Below are positions 2,458 through 7,963 of a stretch of 15,836 nt of DNA, one piece after another (position 1 is the stretch's first letter; every line of letters begins with the position of its first letter). The position numbers were made by a program, and so were the translations under genes. The notes under the pieces were generated by a model that worked only from the letters and a program-made list of their open reading frames with translations, did not search any database and was not told the DNA's origin. This DNA is from a virus (taxonomy: Duplodnaviria; Heunggongvirae; Uroviricota; Caudoviricetes): the IMG/VR virus record IMGVR_UViG_2645727970_000008. One strand, written 5' to 3'.

Positions 2458-2784
2458 TCAGGGTGCTGAAGGACTAAAGATAAATGTTTTCTTCACGCCT
2501 TTACGCGGCTTGTCCTTCTCAAATCGCCATTTTGCCATCGCCTTTACAACCTGCTCATCAAACAGATGGTGCGGCTCTGAACGGATAAACTCAATTCGGG
2601 TGACAGTACCATCAGCACCAATATCAAACTTCACATCAACCCGTCCCTTTATATAATTTGCCGCGGCATAGGCCGGATATTGTGGTAATGCCTTAACCAA
2701 CTGTCGAGGCATATCTGTTTTATGTTGCGTACAGCCCATAACCAAAGAAGACAACAAAATAATTAACGGAAGATTTCTTTTCAT
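2458..2784 (-). CDS. Lipoprotein consisting of a TonB C-terminal domain (signal peptide, lipobox Cys, TonB_C fold)
   Basis: Start taken at the second Met (MKRNLPLIILLSSLVMGC), which has a GGGA Shine-Dalgarno; the track ORF extends to 2799. The mature part ALPQYPAYAAANYIKGRVDVKFDIGADGTVTRIEFIRSEPHHLFDEQVVKAMAKWRFEKDKP aligns with the E. coli TonB C-terminus ([28 protein letters not shown]...FEREVKNAMRRWRYEPGKP) as recalled. Confidence 0.8.
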   Translation of the reverse strand: MKRNLPLIILLSSLVMGCTQHKTDMPRQLVKALPQYPAYAAANYIKGRVDVKFDIGADGTVTRIEFIRSEPHHLFDEQVVKAMAKWRFEKDKPRKGVKKTFIFSPSAP

Positions 2785-2804
2785 TTTTATTCCCGGCATA
2801 GATA

Positions 2805-2821
2805 AGAATAAGTCTTATTCT
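2805..2821 (-). promoter_or_regulatory. 17-bp palindromic operator candidate (AGAATAAG-T-CTTATTCT) overlapping a TAGAAT -10-like hexamer upstream of the TonB-CTD lipoprotein gene
   Basis: Perfect inverted repeat read directly from the sequence, 21-37 nt upstream of the start codon. AT-rich hexamer content is loosely Fur-box-like. Confidence 0.35.
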
Positions 2822-3459
2822 AACAATGCAGCCCTGTCGGTCATCAATCCTCTGCTTAATGGCAATGACAATTATCCGACTTAAATCACAAATCAGACAC
2901 ATGACATAACAGAGCTTGCGAGGTAACACATCGTCCGGTTTCTTCCACCATCGCACCGGACCAGCGACCATGAGGGGACAACGCCGCGCTCCGTTAACAC
3001 GGTAAACCCCGGTGTGTATCGTTTTTGATTATCCCCGCACACTCGCGCAGAGGAGTCTCCCTCTCGGGCTGTGGTCTCTGTTGATGCGGGAATACGGCGA
3101 CGATACAGTGCATAGTTATGTCAGGCTAAAATGCCTTTATCAAATCTGGGTAACGCAATCTGCCATTGTTGGCTCCGGTTGTGGTGATGATGTCAAGCAA
3201 GCCCATCTTGACTATCTCAACTAGTCGATTCATGACATATGTCACATTTATACCAACCAGATCATTGCGTTGAGTTTACAACTCAATAATTCTTGGTTGG
3301 ACGTCAAGTTTTGACGGTATTCGGGTGGCAGTTGATAGCAATCTTGGAACCGTCCACCTAATAGCTGCTTGTGTGGCGTTTAAATTGTGGAGTGCTCGCA
3401 ACAGAACTTTTCTTTCTTGTTTGCGAGCGATGTTTAGCAACTTTTAAGAGAGTTAAGTC

Positions 3460-3690
3460 ATGGAGTTTTTGAAAGAGCATCATTTGCCTTCAATAATTTT
3501 TGGAATTTTTTCCGCCATTTTTTGGATTATTTCATGTTTTGCATCTTCCAAAGAACACCCACCAAAAACGGAACAAGGCAGTTTCTCATCACTGGGTTGT
3601 TTTAAAGCCATTGAAATACAAAGTAAATGGAATAAACGGGCTGCTTTTTGCGCAGCGTTAGCTGTTCTTGCTCAAGTATTTAGCTTTTAG
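3460..3690 (+). CDS. Small membrane protein (76 aa, two hydrophobic segments); opposite-strand moron between Rz and cos
   Basis: ATG with GAGAG upstream, hydrophobic stretches LPSIIFGIFSAIFWIISCFA and AAFCAALAVLAQVFSF, and a strong intrinsic terminator immediately after the stop. Confidence 0.5.
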   Translation: MEFLKEHHLPSIIFGIFSAIFWIISCFASSKEHPPKTEQGSFSSLGCFKAIEIQSKWNKRAAFCAALAVLAQVFSF

Positions 3691-3696
3691 TTTCAA

Positions 3697-3735
3697 AAGT
3701 GTAAATCAGAACCACTCGTATAGCGGGTGGTTCTC
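3697..3735 (+). terminator. Rho-independent terminator (10-bp stem GAACCACTCG/CGGGTGGTTC, TATAG loop, T-rich tail); may also act on the minus strand downstream of Rz
   Basis: Hairpin plus TCTGTTTTATT read from the sequence, directly after the 3460..3690 stop and about 70 nt past the Rz stop on the other strand. Confidence 0.7.
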
Positions 3736-4244: not shown

Positions 4245-4738
4245 TGTTGCCCCCACAAACAGACTTCACGCTCAATCTCACGGCGAGTCATCAGCCCTTT
4301 CCATTGCTTACCGCCAGCGTATGTCCAGCGCCGTAGCTGATCACATGCGCCTTTGATATCGCCCTGGTTTATTTTGCGAAGAAGCGTCGATGTTCTGAAA
4401 TTGCCAGCGCCCACGTTGTAAACGAACGAGTAAAGAGCGCCGCGCGTTGTTTCCGGTATATCGACGTTGATGTACGGGTTAATTTGTCTGGCGACCGTGG
4501 CAAGGTCTTTATTCAGGAGGGCTTTGCATTCTGCTTCGGTATACGTTTTACCGGGCATGATGTCTTTTCCGGTGTGTCCGTGACATACAGTCCATACGCC
4601 AACGATATCTTCGTATGGTATGTAGCTGACACCTTCCAGGCCATCGTCACCACTCGGACCAGTGATGAGCACAGACGCTATGGCAACAGCCCCACCACCA
4701 ATAGCAGCAGCAACGGCTTTTCGTAATGATGGAGGCAT
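4241..4738 (-). CDS. R: SAR endolysin (phage 21 R-type lysozyme)
   Basis: 165 aa. N-terminal Gly/Ala-rich SAR segment [27 protein letters not shown], then a lysozyme core ([19 protein letters not shown]...). Start ATG overlaps the holin stop (TAATG). Confidence 0.95.
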
Positions 4739-4944
4739 TATTCACCTCTCGCAGCCTTGCGCTTATCTTCTTTAATCTTGAAATAAAGGTTTGTCAGATA
4801 CGTCAGCAGGCCAAACAGCAGACTCCCCAGCACACCTATTGCCACCCACTGGGACGGAGAGACTTTGTCCAGCAGCTGCAGTAAACAGTATCCCGTCCCC
4901 ACCGCTGACGTGGTGTATGACACACCTGTTGTGATTTTTTCCAT
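4738..4944 (-). CDS. S: Pinholin (S21-type class II holin)
   Basis: 68 aa, [10 protein letters not shown]...[40 protein letters not shown], resembling S21-68 as recalled. GGAGA Shine-Dalgarno. Located immediately upstream of the SAR endolysin. Confidence 0.9.
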
Positions 4945-4993
4945 CTGATGTATGTCTCCGTCACCGCCGACAGAAAATGAAAGTAAAGAAAAA

Positions 4994-5027
4994 CAAAAAA
5001 ACCGCCAGTGTCACCCACTGACGGCCA
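4994..5027 (-). terminator. Rho-independent terminator on the minus strand between the esterase gene and the holin
   Basis: Minus strand reads GCCGTCAGTG-GGTGA-CACTGGCGG followed by TTTTTTTGTTTTTC. Confidence 0.75.
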
Positions 5028-5200
5028 ACGCCGGGAGCCGTGATTATGGCATTCAGGCTCTGCTAAAAATGCCAGATAACATTCCGGCCAACCCCTGATT
5101 CAGGTTATAAATGACACAATATCTTGACAACATCCGTCACTGTCTGTCAGAAAATGTACTGCCAAGTATAAGTATCATGTGAAGTACATCTACCCGTTTT

Positions 5201-5237
5201 AGCCAGCGTCCTTCAGAGTGGGCGCTGGCTTTTTTTA
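5201..5237 (+). terminator. Strong plus-strand-specific rho-independent terminator (11-bp stem, 8-nt loop, T6 tail)
   Basis: AGCCAGCGTCC-TTCAGAGT-GGGCGCTGGCT followed by TTTTTTA on the plus strand. The minus-strand version lacks a U-tract. Confidence 0.7.
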
Positions 5238-7103
5238 TTATGCTGCCGGTGCATTTATCTCCAGCACCAGACTTTCTATCTCAACGCCATACGCTGCATT
5301 TTTTGTAACATCCGTCAGCGTCAGCGCATTCAGTCCCAGTGTCAGACCGTCTTTTATAACCTGGAATGCCGGGCCAGCCACTCCATTCAGTTTCGGAGTA
5401 ACCGTGGCACTGCCGGCGGTGAACACCAGCTCCAGCGTCTGCCAGTCGTTACCGTAACCGCCGAACTCCCCCAGCTTCGTGTTTCCGGCTTTCCTGTGAT
5501 GCATCAGATTCACTCTGCCGTCAGTGGTCTGAGTGAAGTAAGACATCAGGAACGGATTACCAGTACCCGTCATCGCCACATCATCAGGAACGGGAGCGTC
5601 CGTATACAGATAAATCCCCAGCCCGAACTGATTGTTGGTCAGTGCGCCTGAGAGGCGGAACTTACAGGTCAGTCTGCCGCCCTGTGTCAGCAGGGTAATT
5701 GCGTCATCCACCGGATGCATCAGGGACCAGGTTTTATTGCTCTGCTTGGTGATCTTAAATACACCATCTGACAACTGAATTCCGCCATTCTTAATGCTCC
5801 AGCCCTGCGCAGCAGCATCTCCGGCTGTCGGCAACAGGGAGATTGTGCGTACGGATGCATCTTCAGACGGCCCCGATGGCGTGTCGCCGCCGGGCGAGGG
5901 TTTGATTTCCGGTGCCTTACCACTAATGAAGGCTAAGGTGCGACCGGCTACGTTCAGAATAGCAGTTGCCATACGATCGGGAATAATGCCACGACGCGCC
6001 CATGAGCTGAAATGCGTCGGGCGATTTGATGATACCCAGTTTTTGTTCGTTCGGGATGCCGAACCGTAATAACCAGACCCGGCAATATCAGGATCTTCTG
6101 ACGGGTTGTTTGTCGGTGTATTAACTCCGCTACCATCGGTCATAAAGGGAACAAAATAAATCTGCTGGGATTCTTTACCTTTATATGCACCATATACCAC
6201 TTCATATTGCGTACCGTGTTCTTGTTTCCACGCGTATGTCGTGTCGCCACAAATCCAGGGGACTGATGCCGGACTTCCACCGTGACACTGCGCCGCCAGC
6301 CCGGCAAAGTCAGCACGGAACTGCTGTACCATTGCAAGAAATGCTGCTGGCTGCTGGGCGTAACTGGCATTCGTCATATCGAATTCCCCCTGCATCCAGC
6401 ATATCGCCAGCAAAACGTTTTTCGGGTTTTTCTGCAATGCTGCCTTCGTGCGGAAAAGCAGATCCTGATATAACGGCTTACCCACTCCCCAGCGAGCCGA
6501 ATCCTGACTGGCCCCCGTGGACTCGCTGAATGTCCCCTCCGTGCCCTGGGTGAATGCCGAACCACCACGACAGCATGGTACCAGCAGGATCCCCGCGTTA
6601 TTCGGGATATACGGAAGCAGTTTTTTGGCAATATGTAAGCCCTGGCCGACACAGCCGTACTGCCCTTTGCTCAGGTCTGCCTTCGGATGATTCAGCGTAC
6701 TCATATCCTGCACATCATGCAGGCAGTGGTCGGCCGGAATAATATCGTTATATCTGCAGGCAGCCCCACCCGGCGTCACTGTACTGCGGCGCGCCAGCTG
6801 TTTAATGCGCGGATCCGGAGCATCGTATGAATCCGGCAGCGGAAGCCCTTCACCGTAAGCCATGGCATTGGACTGCCCGGCCAGTACGATGACGTAGTAC
6901 CAATCCGGCTCAGTTGCACCACTGACCACCACATCACCTTCTGCTGTAATCGCCTGCATCAGAGTATAAGGGGTTATGGCCACCGGACTACCAAACGGCT
7001 GCCAGCCCTCTTTCAGTTTATGTGTCAGCTTTTCCGCAAGATCTGACGGCGACGCCGCCCTGACAACATCATAGTGTTTAAATGCCATGGTTCTTTCCAC
7101 CAT
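5238..7103 (-). CDS. nanS-p: NanS-p-type sialate O-acetylesterase (DUF1737 N-terminus, SGNH/SASA esterase core, C-terminal lectin-like domain)
   Basis: 621 aa ORF with esterase motif VLAGQSNA and the N-terminal MAFKHYDVVRAASPSDLAEKLTHKL segment typical of the family found downstream of stx in Stx phages. The second Met at 7088 has the better Shine-Dalgarno, so the true start may be 7088. Confidence 0.85.
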   Translation of the reverse strand: MVERTMAFKHYDVVRAASPSDLAEKLTHKLKEGWQPFGSPVAITPYTLMQAITAEGDVVVSGATEPDWYYVIVLAGQSNAMAYGEGLPLPDSYDAPDPRIKQLARRSTVTPGGAACRYNDIIPADHCLHDVQDMSTLNHPKADLSKGQYGCVGQGLHIAKKLLPYIPNNAGILLVPCCRGGSAFTQGTEGTFSESTGASQDSARWGVGKPLYQDLLFRTKAALQKNPKNVLLAICWMQGEFDMTNASYAQQPAAFLAMVQQFRADFAGLAAQCHGGSPASVPWICGDTTYAWKQEHGTQYEVVYGAYKGKESQQIYFVPFMTDGSGVNTPTNNPSEDPDIAGSGYYGSASRTNKNWVSSNRPTHFSSWARRGIIPDRMATAILNVAGRTLAFISGKAPEIKPSPGGDTPSGPSEDASVRTISLLPTAGDAAAQGWSIKNGGIQLSDGVFKITKQSNKTWSLMHPVDDAITLLTQGGRLTCKFRLSGALTNNQFGLGIYLYTDAPVPDDVAMTGTGNPFLMSYFTQTTDGRVNLMHHRKAGNTKLGEFGGYGNDWQTLELVFTAGSATVTPKLNGVAGPAFQVIKDGLTLGLNALTLTDVTKNAAYGVEIESLVLEINAPAA

Positions 7104-7683: not shown

Positions 7684-7714
7684 GGAGTTTACTCACATCT
7701 GACAAAATCAATAT

Positions 7715-7745
7715 AAACAGCCCCTCCGGAGAGGGGCTGGAGAGT
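7715..7745 (-). terminator. Rho-independent terminator oriented for the minus strand (perfect hairpin CAGCCCCTC-CGGA-GAGGGGCTG)
   Basis: Perfect 9-bp inverted repeat; the minus-strand reading is followed by TTTATATTGATTTTGT. Confidence 0.65.
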
Positions 7746-7963
7746 GGCGCTATGTGCCATTGCATGGTGCCGGGTGCCTCCCGGTGAATTCAGTACCAGC
7801 ACCTGAATCCGCGATTATCCCATATACCTACTCGCTGATTGCCCCTCCGCACAGGGGGATTCACCATGCCAGTTTCTTTTAACAAACTCCCCGCAAACCA
7901 GACAACAGTCAACCGCCTGAATTGTGAAGTATTTAAAAATTTCTCCCGCTAACTGATACCCGG

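Follow-up and report, generated by a model that had tools for sequence, protein, structure and literature searches.

The spacer between the sialate esterase gene and the holin gene of the window, by which we mean the whole 15,836-nucleotide stretch analysed here (IMG/VR virus record IMGVR_UViG_2645727970_000008, Caudoviricetes), holds, as judged by its identity to a characterised locus, pasC, a free-standing small RNA (sRNA) gene of lambdoid, Stx-phage-like prophages that has already been published. The explanation that we hold with high confidence is that the spacer is the gene of an Hfq-dependent sRNA, most likely one that pairs with its targets in trans, accompanied by a separate terminator on the minus strand. 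An earlier reading made from the sequence alone had argued from a plus-strand-only terminator within minus-strand late genes to a short plus-strand RNA ending near 5237, and the publication of PasC for the identical sequence bears this out. pasC is in this respect a positive control for such sequence-only reading: a real sRNA was called from a terminator in the “wrong” orientation. The present analysis adds the promoter deduced from comparison with a paralogue, the onset of sequence variation at the transcription start (+1) and the distinction between single-unit PasC and tandem PasA loci.

PasC (pathogenicity-associated sRNA C) stems from prophage PP5 of EPEC E2348/69 (PMC8550237). PasA to PasD were detected by Hfq RIL-seq in E2348/69 and confirmed by Northern blotting (Pearl Mizrahi et al, 2021; PMC8550237), and Table S6 of that work lists PasC at NC_011601 1290909..1290832, minus strand, with a size of 79 nt and opposite to both neighbouring genes. 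Alignment of window positions 5028–5250 with the PasC locus of E2348/69 PP5 showed 100% identity, base for base. The published ends fall on window positions 5159 (a C) and 5236 (the last T of a run of seven) of the plus strand. The reverse complement of the PasC Northern probe (CGCTGGCTAAAACGGGTAGATGTAC) has a single exact match in the window, at 5184–5208 on the plus strand, and none on the minus strand. Given the probe match, the published ends and the identity of the locus, the RNA predicted by the sequence-only reading is therefore PasC, and by this identity the pasC gene is placed at 5159–5236 (plus strand, 78–79 nt). The earlier expectation of an sRNA of about 60 nt ending at 5237 was right in the kind of RNA and, with 5236, in its 3′ end; the length is instead 78–79 nt according to RNA-Seq and Northern blot.

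Three features assign the spacer to the PasA/PasC family, namely the match to the reference sequence, the location between esterase and holin genes on the opposite strand, and a terminator with compensatory changes. In the same vein, pasA and pasC have been reported from the interval that has the sialate-esterase gene on one side and the holin/lysozyme operon on the other, and phage 2B8 (NC_049952) has been named as a pasC carrier (Zhu, Shabalina and Storz, 2026, bioRxiv 10.64898/2026.05.13.724894); in our search of a phage collection, phage 2B8 was the best phage match to the spacer (98%). The search returned 344 deposited phage records matching the spacer, mostly Stx1/Stx2-converting phages, 28 of which matched over at least 80% of a 401-bp query that included sequence flanking the spacer. 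Only seven phage genomes with Pas homologues have been listed (Zhu, Shabalina and Storz, 2026, bioRxiv 10.64898/2026.05.13.724894), and the gap probably reflects the different databases and the flanking sequence in our query. There is no Rfam family for PasA/PasC, and the spacer had no Rfam match at the gathering score (whole window) or at E ≤ 10 (4940–5300), where only unrelated hits at chance level appeared. In the RefSeq and GenBank records examined, pasC-type sRNAs are unannotated; the records carry “terminator” features only, or nothing.

The window comes from a lambdoid prophage and represents its late region, which is read on the minus strand. In the direction of transcription come a DUF968 protein, then RusA and a Q-like antiterminator (DUF1133; weak match to Phage_antitermQ), a DNA methylase, two tRNA genes, a match to STnc100, the esterase and, beyond the pasC spacer, a P21-type holin, lysozyme, Rz and Nu1. 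The minus-strand late-gene context had been recognised correctly; the spacer has the esterase on one side and holin, lysozyme and Rz on the other. The gene at 5238–7103 (minus strand) encodes a SASA-family sialate O-acetylesterase of 621 aa (Pfam SASA, DUF1737 and DUF6645), abuts the pasC terminator with its 3′ end and is the same pasC neighbour as in E2348/69 and phage 2B8. The first gene of the lysis cassette encodes a class II (P21-type) holin (4738–4944, minus strand; Pfam Phage_holin_2_1, E = 4e-31). Over its full length, the window shares 97.5–98% identity with prophages of E. coli O111:H2 strain 12A as well as with E2348/69 PP5, whose IS insertions it does not have. The two PasC loci agree in promoter, RNA and terminator sequence as well as in esterase neighbour, orientation and length. 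They differ downstream: ISEc13 follows pasC in PP5, whereas the spacer of the window runs unbroken into the holin gene, as described for phage 2B8. We rejected as spurious a 48-aa plus-strand open reading frame at 4952–5098 (“hypothetical” in phage 2B8), which has no Pfam match and spans poly-A and a terminator hairpin.

The plus-strand hairpin is the top-ranked terminator-like site of the window. The intrinsic terminator of pasC (5201–5236, plus strand) consists of the arm AGCCAGCGTCC at 5201–5211, an 8-nt loop at 5212–5219 and the arm GGGCGCTGGCT at 5220–5230, forming 11 pairs (eight of them G-C), followed by a T7 tail at 5230–5236 whose first T closes the stem. The sequence-only reading had assigned an 11-bp stem and six Ts to 5201–5237; the stem stands, and the T run has seven residues and ends at 5236, position 5237 being an A. 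On its own the hairpin folds with −22.7 kcal/mol (z = −6.2, none of 200 shuffles as good), and its opposite strand folds more weakly and lacks a U tract after the hairpin. It ends 1 nt ahead of the esterase stop codon (5238–5240). Both this hairpin and the minus-strand one described below have the marks of intrinsic (Rho-independent) terminators: the stem is rich in G+C, and a U tract follows it on no strand but the transcribed one. The window has 29 terminator-like sites against 14.6 ± 3.7 in shuffled sequence, roughly a twofold excess, and both spacer terminators rank among the top four.

Among 20 family variants the terminator stem is the only common structure. Nine of its pairs are shared by all, and three of these nine carry compensatory double changes (C-G/U-A, A-U/G-C and C-G/U-A). 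The whole PasC RNA has a minimum free energy of −24.1 kcal/mol (z −2.74), with the 3′ terminator as its sole stable structure, and the preceding 5′ body (5159–5196) is unstructured and variable, the variation among relatives starting at the published 5′ end. UUUU stands directly 5′ of the terminator hairpin (5197–5200, plus strand). A U stretch in this position is generally known as a typical Hfq contact in sRNAs (PMC4104026), and by analogy the UUUU would be the Hfq contact of PasC. The only conserved island within the variable 5′ body of the PasA/PasC variants is AUGUGAA (5177–5183, plus strand), a start codon followed by a stop codon, which might serve in a seed or in contact with a protein. 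We rejected the idea that PasC is coding, as its sole AUG (5177) is directly followed by UGA.

The second terminator of the spacer lies on the late-gene strand, between the esterase and holin genes (4990–5026, minus strand). Its stem (5026–5000; 11 pairs, loop of five) is followed by the U-rich tail TTTTTGTTTT at 4999–4990, it is the fourth-ranked hairpin of the window (−18.0 kcal/mol, z = −5.3, none of 200 shuffles as good), and its opposite strand has a weaker fold and no U tract. The minus-strand terminator formerly proposed at 4994–5027 is thus confirmed as strand-specific, with a T-rich tail extending to 4990. It is nearly invariant in relatives, and the phage 434 record (OL657226) carries a “terminator” annotation for it. 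The esterase stop codon lies 210 nt upstream of this hairpin, and the holin start codon follows 45 nt downstream of it. Most likely, this terminator would stop transcripts not modified by Q, such as the esterase gene's own, before they reach the lysis genes; we read it in this way because of the moron organisation of late regions and the Q-like antiterminator encoded upstream. Moron organisation has been described for the late regions of lambdoid phages (Juhala et al, 2000, as cited in PMC4104026), and the window fits this pattern, with the esterase as an accessory gene that precedes the lysis genes and is followed by a terminator. The esterase gene is in fact flanked by terminators on both sides, at 7739–7718 (after the STnc100 match) upstream and at 5026–5000 downstream, and the latter would be the terminator of the moron. 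The earlier view of the spacer as bracketed by convergent terminators was correct in that both are real; they are, however, not a functional pair around one element but belong to two transcription units facing each other.

The behaviour of PasC is known from E2348/69. Northern blot and RNA-Seq coverage gave a size of 79 nt (PMC8550237), and deletion of hfq lowers the amount of pasC RNA (log2 change −2.13, adjusted p 0.015, activating conditions; PMC8550237). RIL-seq recovered 31 interactions in which PasC was always the second RNA of the chimera, like known sRNAs (PMC8550237), and its partners include core and accessory genes, among them the rne 5′ UTR (PMC8550237). Expression, size, strand, Hfq effect and partners were shown for the identical E2348/69 sequence and would carry over to the window through that identity. 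For the rne 5′ UTR, the strongest listed RIL-seq partner, the predicted duplex with the PasC 5′ region (−19.4 kcal/mol) was no better than the shuffle mean (−20.4 kcal/mol), and no seed can therefore be assigned to PasC.

Because an unstructured 5′ body, the UUUU and a stable hairpin with U7 coincide with the published Hfq data, we read PasC as a trans-acting Hfq sRNA, and base pairing in trans would most likely be its mode of action. In the proposed mechanism, a sigma-70-type promoter (−35 TTGACA, 5124–5129) would fire on the plus strand, against the late genes, and the resulting 78–79-nt RNA (5159–5236) would end at the 11-bp/U7 intrinsic terminator next to the esterase stop codon. PasC would then most likely act in trans, using Hfq to pair with mRNAs of the host and of prophages. 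As an independent second element, the minus-strand terminator would act apart from it, halting non-Q-modified transcription before holin, lysozyme and Rz in the lysogen and being read through by Q-modified polymerase in lytic growth.

Alternatively, PasC might act mainly in cis, with antisense pairing (RNase III cleavage) or transcriptional interference damping leaky lysis genes in lysogens and any trans effect being secondary. The arrangement of the locus would suit such a role, as pasC lies between the esterase gene, with which it is convergent, and the holin gene, to which it is opposite, and occupies the esterase–holin junction in essentially all carriers. Sense-strand RNA from the spacer was moreover captured with Hfq in uninduced E2348/69 (RIL-seq entries pasA.E2348C_0689.IGR and pasC.E2348C_1247.IGR). 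However, the RIL-seq behaviour of PasC, with 31 core and accessory partners, is that of a trans-acting sRNA, and in E2348/69 PP5 the gene is still expressed although ISEc13 cuts it off from the downstream region. Variation of the 5′ body is not needed for a pure cis-antisense RNA, though it is compatible with either reading. We therefore regard a mainly cis-acting PasC as unlikely. We propose only tentatively, as a rather improbable addition to any trans role, that pasC is a cis brake on the lysis cassette, the RNA being perfectly complementary to the late transcript at the esterase–holin junction, and that, separately, its 5′ modules could retarget the RNA. If the brake were real, pasC and the minus-strand terminator could together keep holin expression off in lysogens.

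PasC might also be an anti-sRNA (sponge) of the type of AgvB and AsxR; its variable 5′ end would in that case sequester a core-genome sRNA and not act on mRNAs. AgvB, AsxR and EcOnc03 (Rfam RF02702 and RF02703) are short, Hfq-bound prophage RNAs that are encoded in the moron region opposite to the late transcript and combine a variable 5′ end with a conserved terminator (PMC4104026). PasC shares with them both the niche, a moron site in the late region of a lambdoid prophage with the RNA antisense to late transcription, and the design, a variable 5′ part joined to a conserved 3′ part. In length it differs, the anti-sRNAs having 51–60 nt and PasC 78–79 nt. Homology in sequence to AgvB, AsxR and EcOnc03 was examined and rejected. 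The conserved 3′ block of AgvB and AsxR (about 42 nt, AGUAUCUCAUGC..UUGCCCGAACCCAYUCGGGC) is absent from the window at up to three mismatches, the Rfam models of AgvB and AsxR do not match the spacer even at E ≤ 10, and alignments of PasC with AgvB, AsxR and EcOnc03 (sequences from the supplement of Tree et al, 2014) reached z values of 0.8–1.7, which is the level of shuffles. Given further that more than two-thirds of the partners of each new sRNA are coding or 5′ UTR segments under the selection criteria of Table S6 (PMC8550237), a sponge function of PasC appears quite improbable, and pairing with mRNAs remains the reading that we prefer.

Turning to the promoter, hexamers by themselves are no evidence in this window because promoter-like hexamer pairs occur at chance level (22 versus 22.5 expected), and a consensus scan listed neither of the two candidates put forward earlier; comparative data alone single out TTGACA. 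Comparison of six independent loci showed almost no variation over the 210 bp that extend from the holin start codon to 5158, and dense substitutions from 5159 to 5200. TTGACA at 5124–5129 (plus strand), which had been called promoter-like at this very position, is invariant in the six loci, lies 29–35 bp upstream of the published PasC 5′ end (5159) and is likely to be the −35 hexamer of the pasC promoter. The putative −10 region TGTCAGAAAAT (5145–5155, plus strand) offers TGn with either CAGAAA (18-bp spacer) or GAAAAT (20-bp spacer). The TGTCAGAAAAT block is invariant among relatives, and the paralogous unit has TGTGAAAAAT instead. Together with TTGACA, the TGT-CAGAAAAT block is unchanged throughout, and the sequence past +1 varies. 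The layout of TTGACA, 18 bp ending in TGT, and GAAAAA is even kept in the diverged second unit described below (phage 434, E2348 PP2 and Sakai Sp12), and this layout, together with invariance in relatives, supports the earlier call of TTGACA. We infer that the pasC promoter consists of TTGACA and a weak, A-rich, TG-preceded −10 element whose exact hexamer is ambiguous, with transcription starting at about 5159–5163. The published 5′ end derives from RNA-Seq coverage, and the start may be a few nucleotides off or the end a processing site.

The other candidate promoter, CTGTCA-17-TATAAG, would yield an RNA of about 60 nt starting near 5179. Its hexamers are present where they had been reported (5144–5149 and 5167–5172) at a spacing of 17 nt, and yet the pair is a poor promoter candidate: it runs into the transcript, CTGTCA is a poor −35, the pair is absent from the scan list, and the TATAAG position belongs to the most variable part of the locus, where relatives retaining the gene have TAGAAG or CTGAAA. 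With the published 5′ end at 5159 and 79 nt in Northern blots, we rejected this promoter and consider a 60-nt RNA very unlikely. That the spacer yields no functional RNA, and that the plus-strand hairpin, which sits exactly at the gene boundary, is a mere safety terminator against stray antisense transcription into the esterase gene, is extremely improbable in view of an abundant, discrete, Hfq-affected RNA with many partners from exactly the same sequence and of a conserved dedicated promoter upstream of the RNA start.

PasA of E2348/69 PP2 is a paralogue of PasC (alignment z = 22.7) and shares with it the promoter, the position, the 5′ framework and the association with Hfq. PasA differs from PasC in its terminator (GCCAGCACC...GGUGCUGGC, 17-nt loop) and its length of 85 nt; in most cases a second unit stands in tandem behind it, and a read-through form of 236 nt exists. 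The predicted seed of PasA is GCCAGCACCU, where PasC has GCCAGCGUCC. Hfq-binding sites of this kind have been reported from EHEC Sakai as EcOnc51 (prophage Sp12) and EcOnc52 (Sp4) (Tree et al, 2014; PMC4104026), and by locus mapping EcOnc51 is a PasA-type unit and EcOnc52 a second unit.

The esterase-proximal second unit (EcOnc52 in Sakai Sp4, and its counterparts in phage 434, E2348 PP2 and Sakai Sp12) borders on the esterase stop codon just as PasC does, and the 5′ arm of its terminator with the preceding U stretch (UUUUAGCCAGCGUC) is identical to that of PasC. The second unit is likewise a clear paralogue of PasC (alignment z = 13.4), with another 5′ body and its own promoter copy, and does not occur in the window. 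In phage 434 the spacer is the same except for an insertion of 154 bp, by which a unit of promoter-like block plus terminator is duplicated. These likenesses suggest that PasC resembles a fusion of the promoter and 5′ part of the first unit with a terminator like that of the second. In many PasA-type loci the second unit follows PasA on the side of the esterase stop codon; we observed it at 2540–2690 in phage 434, at 2765–2915 (minus strand) in E2348/69 PP2 and at 2499–2576 (minus strand) in Sakai Sp4. It carries its own TTGACA-N18-GAAAAA promoter-like block and a terminator, and coincides with the EcOnc52 Hfq peak. The region has been taken as a 236-nt read-through form of PasA (PMC8550237) and may be a separate sRNA gene.

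PasA/PasC family members were found in 692 of 5,426 complete E. coli genomes, 208 of which carry the full-length PasC type; the annotation under these matches comprises the esterase gene only, or nothing. A pattern scan of IMG/VR yielded 120 loci, which we pooled with the loci from other collections and with the window. The PasC variant of the window occurs 12 times among the IMG/VR prophage contigs. Across the pooled loci there are 26 distinct first-unit variants, which combine 5′ modules, middle modules and one of two terminator types in varied ways, and through such mixing and matching of 5′ modules the RNA could acquire different targets in different strains. The PasC-type terminator always belongs to a single unit that borders immediately on the stop codon of the esterase gene (25 of 26 scorable IMG/VR loci; in the 26th the stop-codon landmark was not found), whereas PasA-type loci mostly have a second unit. 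A search with the 16-mer CTGTCTGTSARAAAAT through one genome per species (596 Gb) gave only chance hits in unrelated phyla, the pattern being too short to define a host range. pasC is one of a group of Hfq-binding prophage sRNAs that are enriched in EPEC and EHEC and interact with transcripts of the host and of virulence genes.

The spacer is also represented in the RIL-seq data by its other strand. A published chimera joins PasB to a sense-strand RNA mapping to window positions 5146–5164. Beside it, within 5140–5164 (minus strand), the sense RNA reads GACAGACAG and can pair over a local match of 9 bp with UUGUCUGUC, which immediately precedes the terminator of PasB. The leader of the holin gene may thus be a target of PasB, although the global duplex energy of PasB with the whole sense-strand spacer was no better than that of shuffles.

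Further RNA genes are found upstream and elsewhere in the window. STnc100 has a full-length match at 7709–7898 (minus strand, 132 bits), upstream of the esterase gene and with its own terminator at 7739–7718. In E2348/69 PP2, PasD2 occupies the equivalent position; the PasD probe sequence is absent from the window, which has the STnc100 match instead. Two tRNA genes on the minus strand, 8595–8671 and 8769–8844, lie between the DNA methylase gene and the STnc100 match and correspond to tRNA-Arg(UCU) and a tRNA with a CAU anticodon, which ARAGORN calls Met and for which RefSeq has tRNA-Ile at the corresponding place of the related prophage L010. The Rfam sok antitoxin model matched at 13090–13261 (minus strand, 107 bits), indicating a toxin–antitoxin locus of the hok/sok type, and hokD is annotated at the equivalent place in L010. 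Finally, the window contains another strong plus-strand terminator-like hairpin (12 pairs, 3708–3734), just past a 76-aa plus-strand open reading frame (3460–3690) that faces the end of the Rz gene and has a 76-aa hypothetical protein as its counterpart at the equivalent place in L010.
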